From Patescibacteria group bacterium (GTDB lineage Bacteria > Patescibacteriota > Saccharimonadia > Saccharimonadales > EFPC-124): a stretch of 61,555 nt of DNA. The stretch is from assembly GCA_035568355.1 (NCBI GenBank), contig DATMOD010000029.1:1-61555 (forward strand), written 5' to 3'. Positions 20,347-28,285 of the stretch are shown here, in pieces (positions within the stretch are counted from its first letter, which is position 1; every line of letters starts with the position of its first letter). The notes under the pieces were generated by a model that saw only the letters and a list, made by a program, of their open reading frames with translations, ran no database searches and was not told the origin of the DNA. A program made the position numbers and the translations under genes.

Positions 20347-21447
20347 CTAGAAATGGATAAATCTTAAGCCTTGGGCTTGCAAAGTCCCGCTTGATATCAT
20401 GCGCTGGCTATAACGCCCACTCCAGTCATAATTGTACTCGCTGATAATTATGGATCCGTCGCCATTTACCGACTCAACATACATAGCATGCCCATAATAA
20501 CCGGCCATCCAAATAGCCACATCGCCAGCTTTTGGAACATTGCTAACTGGTATGCCAGCCGCTTGCGCATTACTCGGCCATTGGTTAGCGTTACCAACTC
20601 CACCCCAGTAAGGCATATGTCGGCCGGATGCCGCTACTCTAAAGGCGGCATAAGATACGCACTCGCGATTATACATGCCCCAATCATCAGCCGTACTATC
20701 CATTGCTAGATCTGCCCAGAACGAAGGATAGCCACCACCCCGCGCCTGGAAGTTAACATGACCACCACTCCACTTAAGATTGGCTGCTGCTTGTTCTGCG
20801 CGCAATTTGGTAATGTTATCATTCTGCTGTTTAATGACTTGCTGATAATTTGCCTCTTGCCCCTGTGTATCGGCAATAAGTTTGTTTTTTTGCTGTTCTT
20901 GGGTAATAAGCTGGCTTTGCATGTTAGTTTGGTCACCTAGAGTACGTGTTGTCTCAACCTTTTGCGCATCAAGCTGTTCTTTAAGCTGCTTAACAGATTT
21001 CAGTGATTCTTGTATCTGGTTATTCAGCACATCCCTATACTGTTGCTTATCTACAAAATCGCTAATACTCTTACTAGAAGCTACCATCTCTAGCGGAGTT
21101 ATAGTGCTTTCTAGATAAGCCGAGCGCAAATTTGTAGCCAAGGCGTCTTTTTGGTTGTCTATCTTTTGCTGGTTGTCTGCTATTGATTGGCTTAGCTGGT
21201 CTAGTTTAAATTGAGTACCAGAAATCTGTGCTCTAACTTCGGCTTGTTGCGCATTGATAATACCAACTTGATTTATTAGTGTATCCGCTTGATTGTGTAG
21301 ATCAGCAGCTTGATTTTGATATTGTGTTACCTGGCTCTTAATAGCATTGATCTGGTCATCAAAATGGTCAGCATAGGCAACAGTAGCTGGATAAACCAGC
21401 CAGACCAACACTACCCCGATTAGTTTTGTCTTTTTTAGTATTTGCAT
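20347..21447 (-). CDS. Secreted coiled-coil plus CHAP-domain peptidoglycan hydrolase (PcsB-like)
   Basis: It has a signal peptide and a Q-rich coiled coil of about 200 aa. The C-terminal CHAP region contains NRECVSYAAFRV and GHAMYVESV. Confidence 0.85.
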   Translation of the reverse strand: MQILKKTKLIGVVLVWLVYPATVAYADHFDDQINAIKSQVTQYQNQAADLHNQADTLINQVGIINAQQAEVRAQISGTQFKLDQLSQSIADNQQKIDNQKDALATNLRSAYLESTITPLEMVASSKSISDFVDKQQYRDVLNNQIQESLKSVKQLKEQLDAQKVETTRTLGDQTNMQSQLITQEQQKNKLIADTQGQEANYQQVIKQQNDNITKLRAEQAAANLKWSGGHVNFQARGGGYPSFWADLAMDSTADDWGMYNRECVSYAAFRVAASGRHMPYWGGVGNANQWPSNAQAAGIPVSNVPKAGDVAIWMAGYYGHAMYVESVNGDGSIIISEYNYDWSGRYSQRMISSGTLQAQGLRFIHF

Positions 21448-21561
21448 TTTGGATGTACCCTTAGTATCATCTTGAACTTTAAAGCTCGATCTGTCAATAT
21501 GCTTACGCTGCCTTGAGCTACTCTGCTATACTCACAGATATATTAAAGGGCTATTTGAGCT

Positions 21562-21969
21562 ATGGACTTACAAGTTGGGGTAAAGGCACTCATTAGAAAT
21601 AATGCTGGTGAATATCTTTTTATTCGACGCAAAAAACTTATGGCAGGCGATAATCAGCTTCGTTGGGACATACCTGGTGGCCGAATTGAACCCGAGGAGA
21701 CATTGGTTGAGGCGCTGCGCAGAGAGATTGCAGAAGAAACAGATCTTGAGCTTACAAAGATTATTGAGCTGCTAGATGCCCAAGACATTATTATTCCTAA
21801 ATCACAGCTGCATGTTGTGCGCCTAACCTACCAAGTTGAAGTAGGCAAAGAATTACGTCTAGGAGACGAACATACTGACCATAGATGGGTATCACTCATG
21901 AAATCTACAGACCTATTTGTTGACGCTCAGTTGCATCAAGTACTAACAACGCTACAGAAAACCAACTAA
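21562..21969 (+). CDS. NUDIX hydrolase
   Basis: GGRIEPEETLVEALRREIAEETDL is a Nudix box. Confidence 0.85.
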   Translation: MDLQVGVKALIRNNAGEYLFIRRKKLMAGDNQLRWDIPGGRIEPEETLVEALRREIAEETDLELTKIIELLDAQDIIIPKSQLHVVRLTYQVEVGKELRLGDEHTDHRWVSLMKSTDLFVDAQLHQVLTTLQKTN

Positions 21970-22071
21970 CTACGCGGTATCCCTTCTCTGGTATTCATAA
22001 CATGGTGGGCATTTAGAGAGTATAGATAAGTAGCAAACTTACTCGCGCTGACCAAGAGGTCTAAAGAATAA

Positions 22072-22512
22072 TTATCTGCCAATCGCTTTTAATAGGTCTT
22101 TAGAAAAAGCTTCGGGCTCCTCCACTTCTATGACAATCTCATTATATTTCTCATCTTCCAAAGAAATGACAACAACTTTTTTTGGGCGATAAAAATCATA
22201 GAAAACTCGTTTGCCTTTGTGATAAAAAGTGCCAGCCTTAACAATAAACGGTATATCGGTGCCAAAGCTCCTAAAGCCATGCCACCAACGCTGCGGTATG
22301 ACAGAGTCAGCCCTCACATTGGTTATATGATTCAACGGTATCTCAAGCCGACTTCTCAAGGCCAGCACCTTATCAAATCCCAAGATCTCGAGCTGCAATT
22401 TATCTGAAGTTATAGTCGGCTGAACCATGCTCTGATTGTACCAGACAGTGAGGTGACAAGTGCAATCACTTCGCACTCTTGCATCTATCTCAAACATATG
22501 TTTTAATAACAA
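22072..22512 (-). CDS. Hypothetical protein; the start is uncertain and the real start is probably the internal MVQPTITS at 22428
   Basis: The ORF is present, but the first 28 codons have no Shine-Dalgarno and abut the GC-rich element. Confidence 0.5.
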   Translation of the reverse strand: MLLKHMFEIDARVRSDCTCHLTVWYNQSMVQPTITSDKLQLEILGFDKVLALRSRLEIPLNHITNVRADSVIPQRWWHGFRSFGTDIPFIVKAGTFYHKGKRVFYDFYRPKKVVVISLEDEKYNEIVIEVEEPEAFSKDLLKAIGR

Positions 22513-22524
22513 TTATTCTGCGCC

Positions 22525-22850
22525 GTCTCCCACACAGGGAAGCGGGTGGATAGAGGAACGGAGCACGACATGGCAAGGCGTAAGAAGCTGCAGCAGCAAT
22601 CCACGAGCGTGGCCACCCCGGCAGCCCCGCCCGCAGCTAGGTATAGCTGCGGACACACCGCCGACATCACCACCGCAGGTGGTGTGTGCCAGCAAAAAGA
22701 TGGCGGGGCCCGCTGGCTCAGCTGTGGAGGCATAAGAATCGTGTCGTCTTAGCTCTCCACCTCCCCCCGGCCACGCATCGCGCGCGGTCGGGGGCTCAAC
22801 CAAAGTTCAGGAATCAAACTGCATAAGAGATTCGAGGATTTTGGTTGAGA
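22525..22850. ncRNA. Candidate structured RNA of unknown family, or a foreign GC-rich fragment
   Basis: I counted 170 G+C in the 260 nt of 22541-22800. All six frames are open but none looks protein-like. Nested hairpins lie at 22632-22651, 22668-22684 and 22764-22794. The long-range pairs are 22625-22631/22702-22708 and 22795-22804/22840-22849. Confidence 0.35.
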
Positions 22851-22910
22851 TAGAGAAGTTAGAGGAAAACCAAAAGTTGCTTTGGATCAATAATAGGTGT
22901 GTAAATCAAG

Positions 22911-23837
22911 TCAAAGCTTTAAATACCGCCTCATAGCTAGAAGCGAAGAGATTATACCTATAGCTATCCCGACTGCAATTTGACCTAGTACTATAAGTAC
23001 TGGCCATTGACGCATAAAATGAATCGTCCCACCAATTTCTATGCCTTGGCTAGCTATATAATCTGCCTTGGTCAGCAATAAAGCGTAGACAAATGTTATA
23101 GAAACAATCGCCGACAACACTCCGTAAAGCGAGGCTTCCACAATGAACGGCCCGCGTATAAAGTATTTTTCGGCGCCGATTAATCTCATAATCTCTATCT
23201 CATCTTTGCGATTAAAAATTGCCATACGGATGGTATTAAAAATAATCAATACCGATATAATCACAAATATCACTGCCGATATCACACCGGCCGACTCTAA
23301 GAACTGCGTCACATCAGCAATTCGCTTGACAGCCTGCTTTTGTGACTCAGAATTTGATGATTGTTGCCCAAGCAGATCTTTATTTTGATCACTACTAATA
23401 ACTTTATTCAAATCATCAATTTTATTAGGATCTTTTACTTTAATTTTAAGTGAAGCCGGCAACGGATTACTGCTCAATTGGGTCAACGCCTCTAAACGGG
23501 TTAGCTCCGTTTTATTTTGCTGCTGAAAGATAAGGCTAGCCTGGTCTTTTGAAATATACTCTACTGATGTAACAATTGGTACCTTTTTGATTTGGGTGAT
23601 AAAACGTTGAAGATCTTCTTCGGCTATGCCGTCTTTTAGATAGACTGATACATCAATCTTTTGGCGTACTTGTTGAATAGTGTCATTAAACACCATCCGC
23701 GCCAAAAGCGTGCTCGCTATAATTACGAGGGTAATCGTCATTACAGCTGCAGCGGCCGTCGTTAACCAAGCGTTACGCGAAAGATTTCGCACGCCATATT
23801 GCAGAATTCTCAAGAAGGTTGTCCATTGTCTACGCAT
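22911..23837 (-). CDS. ftsX: Cell division permease FtsX
   Basis: It has 4 transmembrane helices and a large first extracellular loop, and lies immediately after ftsE. Confidence 0.9.
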   Translation of the reverse strand: MRRQWTTFLRILQYGVRNLSRNAWLTTAAAAVMTITLVIIASTLLARMVFNDTIQQVRQKIDVSVYLKDGIAEEDLQRFITQIKKVPIVTSVEYISKDQASLIFQQQNKTELTRLEALTQLSSNPLPASLKIKVKDPNKIDDLNKVISSDQNKDLLGQQSSNSESQKQAVKRIADVTQFLESAGVISAVIFVIISVLIIFNTIRMAIFNRKDEIEIMRLIGAEKYFIRGPFIVEASLYGVLSAIVSITFVYALLLTKADYIASQGIEIGGTIHFMRQWPVLIVLGQIAVGIAIGIISSLLAMRRYLKL

Positions 23838-23858
23838 TTTTAAAATCCCATCCTGGCA

Positions 23859-24545
23859 CTAGCCTTGCTTATAGCCACCCTGGGCTACATCAGCTATAAC
23901 TTTGCCATGATCGATTGTTATAACTCGGCGTTTTAACTTATTAACAATGTCTTGATTGTGAGTAGTAAGTAACACTGTCGTGCCATATCGATTGATTTTT
24001 TCTAGCAAGCGCACAATATCCCAAGAGTGCTTAGGATCGAGATTACCAGTCGGCTCATCAGCAATCAATATTTTGGGTTGGCGCACCACAGCCCTGGCAA
24101 TCGCCACTCGTTGTCGCTCACCACCCGATAGTTCATCAGGGAACTGTTTTTCTTTACCTTTTAAACCAACTAGATCTATGACTTTAGGCACAGTGTGGTT
24201 GATCTCGCGATTGGTCATACCTACAATCTCTAGCGCAAAGGCGATGTTTTCGAACACATTACGCTGAGGCAATAGTTTAAAATCTTGGAATACTGTACCG
24301 ATTTTACGACGCAGTAACGGCACGCTCTTGTCTTTTAGTTCATCGTAATCGATACCACCAACAATAATCTTGCCACTAGTAGGCCGTTCTTCGCGCGTTA
24401 AAATTTTTAGCAACGTCGACTTACCTGCCCCACTCGTGCCAACCAGAATAACAAACTCTTTAGGGTCTATATGCAGGCTGACTCGATTCAGTGCTGGTTT
24501 GCTATCTTTGCCATAAAGCTTGGTCACACGGTCTAAAAGAATCAT
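23859..24545 (-). CDS. ftsE: Cell division ATP-binding protein FtsE
   Basis: It has Walker A GTSGAGKST, signature LSGGERQR and Walker B ILIADEPT. I moved the start to the ATG at 24545 (MILLDRV). Confidence 0.9.
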   Translation of the reverse strand: MILLDRVTKLYGKDSKPALNRVSLHIDPKEFVILVGTSGAGKSTLLKILTREERPTSGKIIVGGIDYDELKDKSVPLLRRKIGTVFQDFKLLPQRNVFENIAFALEIVGMTNREINHTVPKVIDLVGLKGKEKQFPDELSGGERQRVAIARAVVRQPKILIADEPTGNLDPKHSWDIVRLLEKINRYGTTVLLTTHNQDIVNKLKRRVITIDHGKVIADVAQGGYKQG

Positions 24546-24655
24546 CGCTCTTAATTGTAGCACAAGCAAGATGATGCTTCTCGATAAATGGCTTACATAC
24601 ATTACATTTGCCACTATGTAAAGCTGCCATCTCAGGCAAAGCTATCAAATGAACT

Positions 24656-27600
24656 TTATCTTTGCAGTATTTCTATAGCTGTCAGGTTCCATCGATCGTT
24701 AGTGGGCGCCGTGTCATTAATCGTCACTACCGTGCCAGAAGCCGGCGTAATGTTAGTTTGGCGTTGTGCCCAATAGGTATCACCAGATGAAGCCAAAAAC
24801 TCATCAACCTTGGTCTGGTTAGTACCAACAGTTCGAGCGGTTGCTGAATCCCAGTCGTTACCAACACCCCATACCCACGAGTTAGCAGCTGTGGTGGTAA
24901 GTGAAACGCTAGGTGCGCCCGTAGATGCATTAGCACTGGCTACCGCACCATCGACAGCCGTATTAGCGTTAAGGAAAGCTACCACATTGATTGAGCCGAT
25001 AAACGAGCCGCTATTTCTAGTAGCTACAGTGGCTATGCTAGTACCAGCTGTTGGAGCAACTGCTGTCCAGATCTCAGAAGTACCAGCTTGGGTGTTGGTA
25101 CGTTGTCGCAACTTCCAGGTCAGGCCGCCCCCACTAACGGATGCGAAGTTAATGGTGCCCGGGTTTGGGCCATCTGAGTTAATAAATGCTACCAGCAGTT
25201 CATTAGCTGCCGCCGTAGTCAAACTCGGGGCATTAATAGTATTGCTTGCAGTTGTTTGATGGAAGCTGACTGCTTTATCAACTGCCAGTGCTGCAGAAGC
25301 AGCTGGGGTTGTAACTGCCGCCGAATTAGACGCTGGGCTGACATTACCAGCCGCATCACGAGCTGTAACCGTATAGCTATAGCTTGTGCTGGCGACTACG
25401 GTGTTGTCTGTGTATGTAGTGCTGGTTCCGGCTGTTGTGCCAACAGTCACGCCGTTGCGGAGTACAGTGTATCCAGTCACACCAACATTGTCGGTTGAAG
25501 CTGCCCAGCTTAGAGAAACTGAACTTGAGCTGGTAGCGCTGGCTGTTAGGTTAGCTGGTGCTGTTGGCGGGGTGGTATCGGCAGTAACGACCACGCTAGT
25601 TTCGTTAGAGGATGAGCTAATATTGCCGGCAGTATCTTGAGCTTGAACCTTGTAATAATAGGTACCAGCTGCTAAACCACTGTCAGTAAAACTAGTAGTA
25701 GCACTGGTGCCAATCTGGTTAGACGCGCCAGGAGTAAATCCGGTAGTAGTAGAGCGATAAACAACATAGTTTGCTATTCCTGCACTACTAGTCGATGCAG
25801 TCCAGCTGAGAGTTGCCTTGCCGATACTTCCTGTCCCTGTTAAGTTAGCTGGTGCTGTTGGCGGGGTGGTAGATTCGTAAGCAGCTGGAAACCGAACCAT
25901 CGAAGCGACCGATGGCACGCCATTACTATTAACAATAAATAGCATGTAGTATCCGGGAGGAGCCGTATTGCTGTTTGGGGGCATCTGAATGTTTAAGCCA
26001 CCCGCAGTTTGGGTAAAGCTGAGTGGTACAGCTCGACCGTTTTGATCAAACGAATGAGTTGTTGACCCAGTACGAATCAGAGTCACCTTGCTGATACTCG
26101 CACCATCTGGCGTGCCAACAAAGGTATTTGACCCATAAGCTACCGTACTAGGTGCTGAACTGATGGTTGGTCGTGCCCCCTTAAAAAGATACGATGGGGA
26201 GTAAATCTGGTAACTTTTTTGGTCTGGTACACCGGCGTCACCACCGCTTCCAGATTCAAATATACGACCGTCGGGCATAAGAAGAGCGGTTGAATGATAC
26301 AAGCGAGCCACACTCATGCTGGCGAGAGTTGACCAACTACCGCTACTTGGGTTCCAAAGCTCAGCCTGTAGGACACCGTTGGCATTGCTCGAACCAGTCT
26401 TAGTTGTATCGCCACCCGTAGCCAGCACCGTGCCATCTGGCAAATTTACAAGATTCACAAAACTACGCGGGAAAGCCATGCTGCCAGTTGGTTGCCAAGT
26501 TGGGTTGGGTTTACTCATATCTAATGTGAAAGCTGTGTTGCTTGAAGCGCCAGTGTTGCCGCTATCAGCAGCCGAACCAGCCTTCATAAACAGATTAGGG
26601 GCATAATTGGCAATGCTGGCACCATCAATTATGCGAGCGTCAATTGTGCTCCACTGCTGGGTAGTAAGATCGAGCACTTTTGTTGAGGTGGCGACTTCGG
26701 ATGCACCAGCTTGTAGAACCCGCCCGTCTGGTAACTGATACATAAATGGATAGACTGGTATTGACTGAGTAGCGCTAGTAGCCATGTCAGTCCATGTATT
26801 GTTCTGGACATTATATATCTCTGGGATAGTAACCAGATCATTTATGGCCGTGTTGTAGCCAGAGGTTGCCATTACTCTACCATCACCTAGTGTAGTGCCC
26901 GTAGCGTACCAACGAGGATGGTGCATTGGCGCAAGACTTTGCCAGGTTTCGGTAGTTGGATTAAAGGCAGTTACAGCAGTAGTGCCAAGGCCGCCACTAG
27001 TTGAGGTTCCGCCGATAACCAATATGCGACCATCAGCAGTTACTGCTTGCCCAGCACAGAAAAGATCGGCTGCAGCATTCGGTACTTGATTGATACTATC
27101 ATTAGTCGGATTGTAGAGATATTGTTGCCCACCTTGCGAAAAGTCTCCCTGCATTGTTAGGATTTTGCCAGTAGGCGTTAAGGCAGCGTGAATCGAAACC
27201 TCTGGGTAAGTAACCACTGGACCCCACTGTCCAATCAACGACGCATTTGAACCGGCATTAGAAACAGTCACGCTTACACCACTGGTAGTTGCAGTACCGC
27301 CAGCTGCATTTCGGGCACGCGCTGATAAAACGTGACTACCATTTACGGTTTGGGTGGTATCCCAGTTTATATTGTAAGGCGCTGTCGTAATCTCGGCTCC
27401 CAGGTTTGCACCGTCGAGCAAGAATTGTACGCCAACAACTCCCACGCTATCGCTAGCAGTGGCGCTAACGACCACACTATTCGAAACTGTGGCTCCACTA
27501 CTAGGCGCTGTCATCTGAACAGTTGGTGGAGTAACGTTAGTGGTTGCTGGTAGAATTTCTATAAGCGACAGGTTCCATCGGTCGTTGATAGGTGCAGTGT

Positions 27601-28285
27601 CGTTAATAGTCACGGCTGTACCAGCAGCTGACGTGACATTGGTTTGGCGTTGTACCCAATACGTATCACCAACAGGAGCCAAGAACTCATCAACCTTGGT
27701 CTGGTTAGCACCAACAGTTCGAGCAATCGCTGCATCCCAGTCAGTACCAACACCCCAGACCCACGAGTTAGCTCTGGTCGTGGTAAGTGAGGCACTTGGT
27801 GCACCGGTAGTCGAGTTGCCAGTGCCAACAGCACCGTCAGTAGAAATATCAGCACCAATAAAGGCTACTACATTCATAGAAGCTGTGTAAGCCCCTGAAT
27901 TGCTAGCCGTTACGCTCATATTACTCATCACATTTGGTGCGACAGCAGTCCAGATTTCAGCTGTACCGGCTTGGGTATTAGTGCGCTGTCTCAGTCGCCA
28001 GGTTAGACCACCGCCACTAACACCAGAGAACGTTTCGTTAGTAGATCCGTCAGAACTTAAGAAAGCCACCAGTAGCTCGTTAGTCGTAGCAGTGTTAAAA
28101 GCTGGCGAAGTTATAGTACTAGAAGCTGTCGACAAGTGTTGACTAACTTGCTGGTCTACTACCAGGCTAGCCGCCGAAGCTGGTCGGGCAAAGAATATGC
28201 TCGATATCCCGCTCGAGCCAAATACTAAAAATATAGACAACCCCACCAAAGAAAAGCGGCGCAGCCATTGATTAAGCCTTTGCAT
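24656..28285 (-). CDS. Large secreted multidomain protein. Order: signal peptide, domain X, Ig-like domain, galactose-oxidase-like kelch propeller plus DUF1929-like domain, 2x FN3, domain X'.
   Basis: There is a strong CAGGAGGT Shine-Dalgarno. The motifs LFCAGQAVTADGRILVIGG, HPRWYATGTTLGDGRV, RLYHSTALLMPDGRIF and GSTTHSFDQNGR align with the Cys-Tyr/Tyr-His/His copper ligand set of galactose oxidase. FN3 repeats follow the PPTAPANLT segments. Confidence 0.85.
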   Translation of the reverse strand: MQRLNQWLRRFSLVGLSIFLVFGSSGISSIFFARPASAASLVVDQQVSQHLSTASSTITSPAFNTATTNELLVAFLSSDGSTNETFSGVSGGGLTWRLRQRTNTQAGTAEIWTAVAPNVMSNMSVTASNSGAYTASMNVVAFIGADISTDGAVGTGNSTTGAPSASLTTTRANSWVWGVGTDWDAAIARTVGANQTKVDEFLAPVGDTYWVQRQTNVTSAAGTAVTINDTAPINDRWNLSLIEILPATTNVTPPTVQMTAPSSGATVSNSVVVSATASDSVGVVGVQFLLDGANLGAEITTAPYNINWDTTQTVNGSHVLSARARNAAGGTATTSGVSVTVSNAGSNASLIGQWGPVVTYPEVSIHAALTPTGKILTMQGDFSQGGQQYLYNPTNDSINQVPNAAADLFCAGQAVTADGRILVIGGTSTSGGLGTTAVTAFNPTTETWQSLAPMHHPRWYATGTTLGDGRVMATSGYNTAINDLVTIPEIYNVQNNTWTDMATSATQSIPVYPFMYQLPDGRVLQAGASEVATSTKVLDLTTQQWSTIDARIIDGASIANYAPNLFMKAGSAADSGNTGASSNTAFTLDMSKPNPTWQPTGSMAFPRSFVNLVNLPDGTVLATGGDTTKTGSSNANGVLQAELWNPSSGSWSTLASMSVARLYHSTALLMPDGRIFESGSGGDAGVPDQKSYQIYSPSYLFKGARPTISSAPSTVAYGSNTFVGTPDGASISKVTLIRTGSTTHSFDQNGRAVPLSFTQTAGGLNIQMPPNSNTAPPGYYMLFIVNSNGVPSVASMVRFPAAYESTTPPTAPANLTGTGSIGKATLSWTASTSSAGIANYVVYRSTTTGFTPGASNQIGTSATTSFTDSGLAAGTYYYKVQAQDTAGNISSSSNETSVVVTADTTPPTAPANLTASATSSSSVSLSWAASTDNVGVTGYTVLRNGVTVGTTAGTSTTYTDNTVVASTSYSYTVTARDAAGNVSPASNSAAVTTPAASAALAVDKAVSFHQTTASNTINAPSLTTAAANELLVAFINSDGPNPGTINFASVSGGGLTWKLRQRTNTQAGTSEIWTAVAPTAGTSIATVATRNSGSFIGSINVVAFLNANTAVDGAVASANASTGAPSVSLTTTAANSWVWGVGNDWDSATARTVGTNQTKVDEFLASSGDTYWAQRQTNITPASGTVVTINDTAPTNDRWNLTAIEILQR
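24659..25288 (-). repeat. C-terminal copy of the intragenic direct repeat of about 0.63 kb (domain X')
   Basis: It aligns along its whole length with 27545-28165 at both the DNA and protein level. Shared blocks include GGGLTW+LRQRTNTQAGT.EIWTAVAP, NSWVWGVG.DWD and NDRWNL. Confidence 0.9.
27545..28165 (-). repeat. N-terminal copy of the intragenic direct repeat (domain X)
   Basis: See 24659-25288. Confidence 0.9.

Follow-up and report, generated by a model that had tools for sequence, protein, structure and literature searches.

Introduction

A structured RNA is usually proved by conservation and covariation among its homologues. A housekeeping RNA such as 6S RNA is expected to be conserved across related species, and actinobacteria have a 6S-like RNA, Ms1. 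High GC content in a long intergenic region is an established hallmark of genes for structured RNAs (PMC8632094), and the GC-IGR motifs of the Breaker laboratory were accepted only where several homologues showed both conservation and covariation (PMC8632094).

With this in mind, we analysed a GC-rich island next to ftsX in a 61,555-nt window, the contig DATMOD010000029.1 of a Saccharimonadales bacterium (GCA_035568355.1), which a sequence-only reading had proposed as a candidate novel structured RNA. The island resembles the GC-IGR candidates (PMC8632094) in being a long intergenic region that is far GC-richer than its genome, dense in stable helices and without a protein or known RNA match, precisely the combination by which that approach picks its candidates; it differs from them in being a singleton for which we found no homologues. 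Since its predicted structure is strong and strand-specific, the island is still best read as a candidate novel structured RNA that stands alone on the plus strand. The element is, however, absent from every relative examined, and is thus an unvalidated singleton, a candidate and not a demonstrated RNA class.

Results

The GC-rich, highly structured core of the island spans 22515–22850 (plus strand; 61% GC overall, 65% in its centre) and is regarded as a candidate non-coding RNA on the basis of its composition, its folding z-scores and the lack of an Rfam match. It lies in an intergenic region of 413 nt between called genes. The G+C count that had been given for 22541–22800 is exact (170 of 260 nt, 65.4%), and this value is indeed far above that of the flanking DNA (33–42%) and above the genome mean of 44.6% (s.d. 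4.0%, 250-nt windows). The best 250-nt window of the island (65.6% GC) ranks third genome-wide, the top two lying inside GC-rich protein genes, and the island is the highest-GC non-coding window in the whole 975-kb genome. The statement that all six reading frames are open proved wrong, as 22541–22800 is free of stops in a single minus-strand frame, the other five frames having 11 stops between them. The lack of a protein-like pattern, on the other hand, was borne out: no convincing protein similarity was found in Pfam, NCBIfam or large protein collections, the large databases having been searched with two of the six frames of the island. The phase GC range (period-3) of the island is 0.10–0.12, compared with 0.13–0.28 in the GC-rich coding-like islands of this genome.

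On the plus strand, the island folds with a minimum free energy (MFE) of −169.5 kcal/mol versus −127.6 ± 5.7 kcal/mol for dinucleotide shuffles (z = −7.4; z = −9.8 in a second run), so that the fold exceeds what chance would give. These z-scores are somewhat inflated by compositional heterogeneity (GC-rich core, AT-rich ends), and GC-rich coding islands also reach about −5.5; in eight control windows, taken from seven further islands of high GC in this genome, z ranged from +0.4 to −5.6. The minus strand gives z = −3.8 to −4.2 with a centroid that differs from the MFE structure, i.e., a poorly defined fold. Furthermore, the fold of the plus strand exceeds that of the minus strand in stability by 16.5 kcal/mol, while the shuffles differ by +4.5 ± 4.6 kcal/mol (z = −4.6) and none of 120 reaches the observed value; base composition alone would favour the minus strand, contrary to this asymmetry. 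The plus-strand helices contain 11 G-U pairs versus two A-C mismatches. Most helices have pair probabilities of 0.9–1.0; for the rod described below, MFE and partition-function calculations give 0.89–1.0 for most helices and 0.53–0.75 for minor, weaker ones.

From 5′ to 3′, the predicted plus-strand architecture has three parts: one hairpin, a rod of 211 nt that ends in a three-way tip, and a pair of further hairpins. The 5′ hairpin (22517–22550) has 13 bp in three segments, including three G-U pairs, with pair probabilities of 0.70–0.99. The rod (22553–22763), which was seen in the MFE and partition-function results and recovered in separate folding runs, is predicted to comprise basal helices (22553–22572/22740–22763), an asymmetric internal loop of 23/8 nt (22573–22595, with a small hairpin, opposite 22732–22739), an upper stem (22596–22628/22705–22731) and a tip of three hairpins (22631–22652 with a GGUA loop, 22653–22687 and 22688–22704). 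It is followed by a hairpin (22764–22794; pair probability 0.98–1.0) that has a GC-rich stem of 9+3 bp including a single G-U pair, lacks a U-tract behind it and was not called as a terminator, and by an AU-richer, irregular hairpin of 21 bp (22795–22849), for which a miRNA model gave a chance-level match only (E = 3).

Most helices that had been drawn from the letters alone recur in this fold. The stem with the GGUA loop is present with 9 bp (22631–22639/22644–22652), as is the stem enclosing it, GCCCCGCC/GGCGGGGC (22624–22631/22702–22709), and the GC stem at 22764–22794. The 10-bp pairing CTCAACCAAA/TTTGGTTGAG (22795–22804/22840–22849) is found as well and extends to 14+5 bp. The 7-bp stem at 22668–22684 can be formed on paper, but it is out-competed by a 10-bp helix, 22653–22662/22678–22687, with a probability of 0.95–0.99. 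Finally, the 3′ side of the 22795–22849 hairpin can, as had been pointed out, pair alternatively, as TTTTGGTT/AACCAAAA (22839–22846/22868–22875).

A search of the whole window with Rfam 15, the scope of which includes riboswitches, ribozymes, introns, OLE/GOLLD/ROOL/HEARO, SRP and 6S RNAs, gave no match at the gathering score. In 22350–23000, at E-values up to 10, only two chance-level matches appeared, the miRNA model mentioned above and a snoRNA model (E = 4.1), so that the claim of novelty withstood this check with no family matching at the gathering score or at E < 1. The island is not RNase P RNA or tmRNA, as had been concluded from missing motifs: the genome has its copies of both on another contig (C42:8931–9290, 255.6 bits, and C42:5773–6172, 98.9 bits, respectively). 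ARAGORN found neither tRNA nor tmRNA in the window. A retron msr-msd was also considered, yet a reverse-transcriptase gene is absent from the surrounding insertion, which encodes only a NUDIX and a bPH protein, and from its flanks, ftsX and pcsB. We also rejected a genome-internal repeat family, as the island is single-copy and its longest other match in the genome is at most 18 nt, and paralogy with the other GC-rich islands of the genome, the sequences of which are unrelated and several of which read as GC-rich protein genes.

The plus strand contains a 60-codon open reading frame (22570–22752, MARRKKLQQQ...) behind a GGAG at 22560–22563, and we considered that the island may be a small protein gene translated from a highly folded, GC-rich mRNA. 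The spacing of the Shine-Dalgarno (SD) sequence is good (GGAG, 6 nt, ATG), the same SD+ATG+GCx context begins real genes elsewhere, and another GC-rich island, on contig C24, seems to carry a small basic ORF. A phmmer search against 1.84 billion representatives even gave E = 2.7e-10 to a repeat protein, P0168, where composition shuffles reach at most 7 bits. This score, however, sums five to seven near-identical repeats, each contributing at most 30 bits, which is chance level for such a database, and the remaining matches carry large bias corrections. Pfam, NCBIfam and PADLOC gave no match to the ORF, gene finders called neither it nor any other gene in the island in four assemblies, the ORFs of the island are absent from a collection of 15 billion proteins, and the GC1/GC2/GC3 values of this ORF, 0.60/0.63/0.72, are not coding-like. 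Moreover, its SD sequence, AUG and stop codon are all buried in the basal rod helices (probability 0.9–0.99). Altogether, the ORF is probably not a real gene, and a protein-coding role of the island appears most improbable. An ORF of 96 aa on the minus strand has no homologue among 5.8 billion clusters.

If the island is a stand-alone RNA gene, it may have its own promoter. A consensus scan of the plus strand at the island found no promoter and no intrinsic terminator, and below its threshold a weak sigma-70-like candidate can be read from the sequence at 22479–22507 (TTGCAT, 17 nt, TTTAAT; 8 of 12 consensus positions). This site would start transcription near 22515, exactly at the first hairpin. 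When the 5′ flank is included in the folding, a possible end-closing helix (plus strand; 22479–22491/22853–22867), available to a transcript that begins further upstream, enters the MFE structure (−177.1 kcal/mol, from a single sequence). Its 5′ strand holds UUGCAU and overlaps both the promoter-like −35 box and one arm of an inverted repeat (22484–22496/22842–22854); for the same bases, the helix and the promoter-like reading are mutually exclusive.

The island might instead act on the minus strand, either as a structured 3′ UTR, terminator or insulator of ftsEX, or as a 5′ leader or riboswitch of the gene on its other side by means of the exclusive helices in 22795–22875. The latter gene (22072–22428, minus strand) encodes a bacterial PH domain protein of 118 aa (bPH_5, Pfam PF10882) and is divergent from the island. 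The mutually exclusive helices, in which 22839–22846 pairs with either 22795–22804 or 22868–22875, are indeed a likeness to riboswitch and attenuator leaders. In addition, ftsX has no recognisable terminator, which makes minus-strand read-through into the island likely, and a weak terminator-like hairpin is found on the minus strand at 22537–22518. The island differs from such leaders, however, in that its best fold is on the wrong strand and that no U-tract follows the 22795–22849 hairpin or its alternative on either strand, and the riboswitch classes of Rfam gave no match; the earlier suggestion of a riboswitch expression platform was thus not confirmed. The much weaker fold of the minus strand, where the G-U pairs of the plus strand turn into A-C mismatches, also speaks against this alternative.

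A leader function is further contradicted by the bPH gene itself, which had been taken to extend to 22512. Its homologues (at most 50% identical) have 117–122 aa, so that its real start is the ATG at 22428. Only 6 nt upstream of this ATG, we read from the sequence a promoter-like site with a TGn-extended −10 element (TTGCAC at 22465–22460, TGGTACAAT at 22443–22435), which suggests that the bPH mRNA is leaderless, and the alternative helices are 370 nt away from the bPH start. The proposed check of whether a similar element precedes bPH homologues elsewhere also had a negative outcome: at three such loci, the upstream gaps are 3–40 nt long or hold unrelated sequence, and blastn gave no island-like match. 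We thus consider a minus-strand role of the island improbable.

The island is part of a species-specific islet of 1.4 kb (21497–22910; boundaries from junction alignment, about ±10 nt), which further contains the bPH gene and a gene for a MutT-like NUDIX hydrolase (21562–21969, plus strand; Pfam PF00293, NCBIfam MutT-type matches below cut-off). The islet is inserted between the stop codon of ftsX (22911–23837, minus strand; Pfam FtsX_ECD and FtsX, and homologues), which forms its upper boundary, and the conserved promoter region (GCGTAAGCATATTGACA) of a pcsB-like gene for a coiled-coil CHAP hydrolase (20347–21447, minus strand; Pfam CHAP and CC_PcsB, and synteny). In all 18 family genomes, a CHAP/pcsB gene of ~375 aa directly follows ftsX and the islet is missing. 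It is also missing from the three closest metagenomic relatives (FtsX 84, 80 and 76% identical), where the ftsX-pcsB spacers measure 55–143 nt. The bPH and NUDIX genes have a resident-type GC content of 41–42%, so that the high GC is limited to the folded segment of the islet. A link of the islet genes to defence was sought with PADLOC, which returned only a generic NUDIX match to the candidate PDC-S07. Identical sequence over 6.9 kb is found in Logan (SRR7098091) and ENA (ERZ27253736) assemblies from other samples, and a JGI assembly (3300050821), compared by layout only, has the same gene order; the recurrence in assemblies from other samples, four independent assemblies in all, excludes that the island is an assembly artefact.

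Such an islet could hold an element that acts as DNA, either MITE-like or a single-stranded hairpin site (such as an origin or a site of recombination), with the 13-nt inverted repeat mentioned above as its boundaries. This repeat (12 of 13 nt matching) flanks the island, ~0.1 such repeats being expected by chance in 550 nt by our estimate, and the two ends of the islet share CTTGA...TCAAG. Yet the element is single-copy in the genome, no target-site duplication is seen next to the repeat, the islet contains no transposase, Rep or integrase gene, and no similarity to phages or plasmids was seen. Since its right arm doubles as the 3′ strand of the final hairpin, the repeat may simply belong to the fold. 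A DNA-level element is therefore highly improbable in our view.

Conservation in relatives, by which the sequence-only reading had asked to be judged, was not found. The island had no homologue by blastn in 40 relatives and 400 genomes of the class, and a covariance model of the 136-nt core had no match in 400 genomes of the class, 400 of the phylum and two non-CPR genomes. A blastn search for a donor in 400 Actinobacteriota genomes returned chance matches of 30–50 nt only, plasmid and phage collections contained no match, and scanning contigs of metagenomes, genomes and viruses with exact seeds gave chance matches of seed length or none. Two short similarities were dismissed. In one, 22560–22590 resembles (31 nt, 87%) the beginning of a virB4-like gene from a different genus of the Saccharimonadales, which we judged to reflect a generic SD+ATG+GCx start context; the virB4 start of the genome itself is unrelated, and the same 18-mer begins unrelated viral genes. 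The other, a 31-nt match to an actinobacterial MAG, lies inside an ordinary ORF of 318 aa and is therefore due to chance. As no homologues were found, neither conservation nor covariation is available for the island.

Discussion

Our preferred reading, which we hold tentatively, is that the island is an orphan, horizontally acquired gene for a stand-alone structured RNA of the plus strand. The element would have arrived within the 1.4-kb islet by horizontal acquisition and insertion between ftsX and pcsB in one Saccharimonadales species. Transcription from the weak promoter-like site near 22479–22507 would yield an RNA of ~340–390 nt with the 5′ hairpin, the 211-nt rod with its asymmetric internal loop and three-way tip, and the two 3′ hairpins. 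Since the neighbouring genes of the islet have a resident-type GC content of 41–42%, the GC-richness of the island may be maintained by selection for folding. As to function, we would expect a stable protein-binding or regulatory non-coding RNA and not a cis-regulator of a neighbouring gene.

Among known RNAs, 6S RNA (RF00013) may offer a structural likeness to the irregular rod of ~210 nt predicted here from a single sequence, with a large asymmetric internal loop (23/8 nt) between closing and upper stems. The island differs from 6S RNA by its three-way tip and its extra hairpins, does not match RF00013 even at E = 10, and is absent from the 18 family genomes and the 400 class genomes. A search of the whole genome with RF00013 gave no match either; the model failed in 9 of 14 control genomes as well, and the absence of 6S RNA elsewhere in this genome thus says little. 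A broader proposal is that the island is one case of a wider, undescribed phenomenon in Saccharimonadia, in which GC-rich, tightly folded, end-closed cassette RNAs, each unique to its genome, are horizontally exchanged; the island would then belong to a new mobile class of structured RNA and not be an isolated relic. Streamlined epibionts might maintain such stable RNAs as a decoy or scaffold, e.g., as a 6S/Ms1-like binder of RNA polymerase or of another host or self protein. We regard this extension as speculative and improbable.

Should the island encode a real RNA, it would be the first and so far only member of a family of structured RNAs of medium size, hosted by a bacterium of the candidate phyla radiation whose genome of ~1 Mb can spare very little space for non-essential sequence. 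Its carriage on a small islet of recent insertion would also suggest horizontal movement of structured RNAs as cargo in these epibionts. The insertion matters for its surroundings, too: foreign DNA here splits the cell-division operon FtsEX-PcsB, which is unbroken in all relatives examined, and the split raises the question of how the expression of pcsB stays coupled to that of ftsEX. At present, the practical use of the element is that its well-defined position can guide metatranscriptome mapping and the study of future genomes of the genus.

Nearly as likely as a structured RNA gene, and by itself still unlikely, is a non-functional relic of foreign high-GC DNA, be it from a mobile element, from a structured RNA or single-stranded DNA element of a donor, or from a decayed gene. 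Such a relic, captured with or beside the islet, would so far have escaped amelioration and deletion, and its fold would reflect its origin and not a role in this cell. The element is species-specific, missing from all family genomes examined and even from the relative with an FtsX 84% identical, and it has neither homologues nor a promoter or terminator by consensus scan, all of which would suit a relic. The generic SD+ATG motif at 22560–22577 recurs at unrelated gene starts, as expected of a leftover 5′ end of a gene. The genome carries several further GC-rich, foreign-looking segments, mostly protein genes, so that DNA of high GC and foreign origin is in itself no rarity in this genome, and GC-rich genes, e.g., an ACP gene, also follow groEL in other Saccharimonadales. 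Downstream of groEL, neither the present genome nor 40 sampled genomes of the order showed an obvious RNA cassette, and the GC-rich stretches found there are protein genes. A donor, however, was found neither among the 400 Actinobacteriota nor in the seed scans, the period-3 GC signal is weak and no per-domain protein similarity is significant. A fold that is so well defined and so strand-asymmetric is unexpected for a random gene fragment, and a streamlined genome of 975 kb would be expected to retain ~400 nt of junk only rarely.

As a separate observation, groEL of the present genome lies on another contig (C27:14166–15812) and is followed by a terminator and ordinary ORFs.

Insertion of a GC-rich island between ftsX and pcsB

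Going by the names attached to its FtsX homologues, the organism is a Candidatus Saccharimonadales bacterium. In 18 of 18 other family genomes, ftsX is followed directly by a gene for a pcsB-like CHAP hydrolase and then by ctpA, and the same order, with spacers of 55–143 nt, holds in the three closest relatives from metagenomes (FtsX 84, 80 and 76% identical). Alignment of the junction revealed that the conserved TTGACA box upstream of pcsB (GCGTAAGCATATTGACA) is retained here and that ~1.4 kb (roughly 21497–22910) is inserted directly after the ftsX stop codon. This islet carries a MutT-like NUDIX gene on the plus strand, a bPH_5 gene on the minus strand (bPH, 22072–22428) and the GC-rich island, for which the plus strand gives the best fold. 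An assembly artefact does not explain this arrangement, since it recurs in Logan and ENA assemblies from other samples, where 6.9 kb around the locus is base-for-base identical, and in a JGI assembly, for which the gene layout only was compared. The ftsE-ftsX-pcsB-ctpA operon (20347–24614), contiguous in the 18 family genomes and the three closest relatives, is split here by the islet. Upstream of ftsE, positions 24656–28285 encode a 1209-aa Kelch/glyoxal-oxidase-like protein where close relatives encode a peptide chain release factor (PCRF/RF-1 domains); hence the ftsEX pair has lineage-specific DNA on both sides.

The sequence-only reading had counted 170 of 260 nt as G+C for 22541–22800, a figure that our recount reproduces exactly (65.4%), while the genes and spacers flanking the island have 33–42% GC. 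Across the genome (975,135 bases in 56 contigs, 97% complete), GC averages 44.6% with a standard deviation of 4.0% in 250-nt windows, and the island's best such window (65.6% GC) ranks third. The two GC-richer windows and several other GC-rich ones are protein-gene-like, with a period-3 GC signal. Within the islet, high GC is limited to the island, the NUDIX and bPH genes having 41–42%.

Predicted fold

The plus strand of the region folds at -169.5 kcal/mol, compared with -127.6 ± 5.7 for dinucleotide shuffles (z = -7.4), and a second shuffle run on 22515–22850 gave z = -9.8, values that are somewhat inflated because the GC core was shuffled together with AT-richer ends. In that second run, eight windows from seven other GC-rich islands of the same genome scored +0.4 to -5.6, and the RNase P RNA and tmRNA of this genome, each on its own strand, -2.3 and -4.7. 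Most island helices have pair probabilities of 0.9–1.0, so that the predicted structure is unusually well defined. It comprises a 5' hairpin (22517–22550), a 211-nt rod (22553–22763) in which an asymmetric 23/8-nt internal loop separates the basal helices from an upper stem with a three-way tip, a GC hairpin (22764–22794) and an AU-richer 21-bp hairpin (22795–22849), all on the plus strand; when the 5' flank is included, a helix pairing 22479–22491 with 22853–22867 is predicted to close the whole unit. Every helix listed in the sequence-only reading exists, but its 7-bp stem at 22668–22684 is outcompeted by a 10-bp helix, 22653–22662/22678–22687 (probability 0.95–0.99). Two plus-strand copies of the octamer GCAUAAGA, at 22730–22737 and 22821–22828, fall mostly at positions predicted to be unpaired, one in the rod's internal loop and the other in the apical part of the last hairpin; chance alone would give about two 8-mer repeats of this kind per 550 nt, and the repeat may be meaningless.

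The minus strand folds less distinctively (z only -3.8 to -4.2), with a centroid unlike the minimum free energy structure. The plus-strand energy is lower by 16.5 kcal/mol, where shuffles of the same composition give a difference of +4.5 ± 4.6 (z = -4.6; 0 of 120 as extreme), and the plus-strand helices contain 11 G-U pairs and two A-C mismatches. This strand asymmetry suggests that the structure took shape in a single-stranded molecule of plus sense. A mobile or hairpin element acting at the DNA level, with a 13-nt inverted repeat as its bounds, appears quite improbable.

Relatives and known RNA families

Searches with blastn, the conservation check that the sequence-only reading had proposed, found only chance matches of 24–32 nt in 40 relatives and 400 genomes of the class. 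Actinobacteriota are presumed to be the phylum of the host and may include the donor; blastn against 400 of their genomes likewise gave nothing beyond chance. With the 136-nt core as a covariance model, no hit came from 400 genomes of the class, 400 of the phylum or two non-CPR genomes. The island had no match in plasmid and phage collections, and exact 18–20-nt seeds returned seed-length chance matches or none from metagenome, genome and viral contigs. A similarity to the start of a virB4-like gene from another genus was dismissed as generic Shine-Dalgarno and ATG context, and 31 matching nt of an actinobacterial MAG because they fall within an ordinary ORF.

Against Rfam, nothing in the whole window reached the gathering score and nothing convincing appeared at E values up to 10 for 22350–23000, and ARAGORN found no match in the window. 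RNase P RNA and tmRNA are encoded elsewhere in this genome, both on contig C42, which rules out these identities for the island. In predicted shape, the rod with its asymmetric bubble is loosely reminiscent of 6S RNA, from which the element departs in all other testable features; the Rfam 6S model finds none in this genome, a result of low weight as it also fails in 9 of 14 control genomes. The island is novel in the sense of matching nothing, an orphan for which no homologues were found.

Coding potential and the bPH gene

Protein readings of the island are weak. All six frames had been described as open, which is wrong: a single frame is stop-free in 22541–22800, and 11 stops fall across the other five. 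Pfam, NCBIfam and PADLOC gave no match for the island ORFs, none of six was present in a collection of 15 billion proteins, three other assemblies carry no gene call there, and a 96-aa minus-strand ORF has no homologue among 5.8 billion protein clusters. A 60-codon plus-strand ORF (22570–22752) with a good GGAG upstream matches a 907-aa repeat protein at a nominal E = 2.7e-10, yet this score sums over 5–7 near-identical repeats, each giving at most 30 bits, which is chance level against 2.4e11 residues; its remaining matches, all Asp-box repeat proteins, carry large bias corrections. The period-3 GC signal of the island is weak, and the Shine-Dalgarno sequence, AUG and stop of the ORF all lie inside predicted basal helices. 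A small protein gene is considered very improbable.

The island had also been proposed as the minus-strand leader, possibly a riboswitch, of bPH. Homologues of bPH among 5.8 billion protein clusters are at most 50% identical and only 117–122 aa long, so that its start is ATG 22428 and not TTG 22512; the nearest ones belong to Acidobacteria or to unnamed metagenome contigs, although the GC content of the gene (41%) is resident-like. A putative TGn-extended -10 element (TGGTACAAT) lies six nt 5' of this ATG, with TTGCAC 19 nt further upstream, which suggests a leaderless mRNA with an independent promoter. At three loci of bPH homologues, upstream gaps of 3–40 nt or unrelated sequence show no similarity to the island. 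The mutually exclusive helices at 22795–22875, likened to an expression platform, do exist, but neither strand has a U-tract after them. We rejected the leader or riboswitch reading, and any minus-strand UTR element seems improbable.

A candidate plus-strand RNA

The element is real, well mapped, species-specific and, by prediction, structured on the plus strand. We tentatively favor a stand-alone structured RNA element that arrived with the islet, because high GC is confined to the folded segment beside islet genes of resident-type GC, because the predicted fold is exceptional, well defined and strand-asymmetric, because a coding signal is absent, and because GC-rich long intergenic regions generally mark structured RNA genes (PMC8632094). 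Such an RNA would probably be stable, protein-binding or regulatory, and would act in trans rather than as a cis-regulator of neighboring genes. A weak promoter-like site, TTGCAT-17-TTTAAT (22479–22507; 8/12), unreported by the promoter scan, would start transcription at ~22515, the foot of the first hairpin; alternatively, its bases could pair as the 5' strand of the end-closing helix, and the two readings are mutually exclusive. Nearly as likely, though itself doubtful, is that the island is a relic of foreign high-GC DNA without function here, with a fold that would reflect its past in the donor; this genome and other Saccharimonadales have clearly taken up GC-rich foreign genes.

Other GC-rich segments

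A second GC-rich (60–66%) intergenic island, C24:3440–3750 (locus L003) on another contig of this genome, has no Rfam match and folds strongly on both strands (z ~ -5). A 58-codon ORF on its minus strand, with GAGG upstream and a GC-rich hairpin 3' of it, would encode a very basic peptide that contains Cys (MAKKHGLFCACKRC...). Six protein-gene-like segments of 58–68% GC (C9:11714–13321, C34:1346–1894, C13:3789–4461, C3:12368–12789, C39:2624–3089 and C8:27450–27822), which include a 496-aa ORF at a contig end, an SGNH/GDSL-like fragment and small membrane proteins, look like horizontal acquisitions from high-GC organisms. GC-rich foreign genes also seem to gather after groEL in some lineages: one other Saccharimonadales genome has a strongly GC-rich acyl-carrier-protein gene directly 3' of groEL (L085; G028:C1, ~235–480), and at the same place another (L080; G450) has a GC-rich gene for a small membrane or secreted protein. 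The genes after groEL are ordinary in the present genome, and the GC-rich stretches found there among 40 order-level genomes are protein genes.
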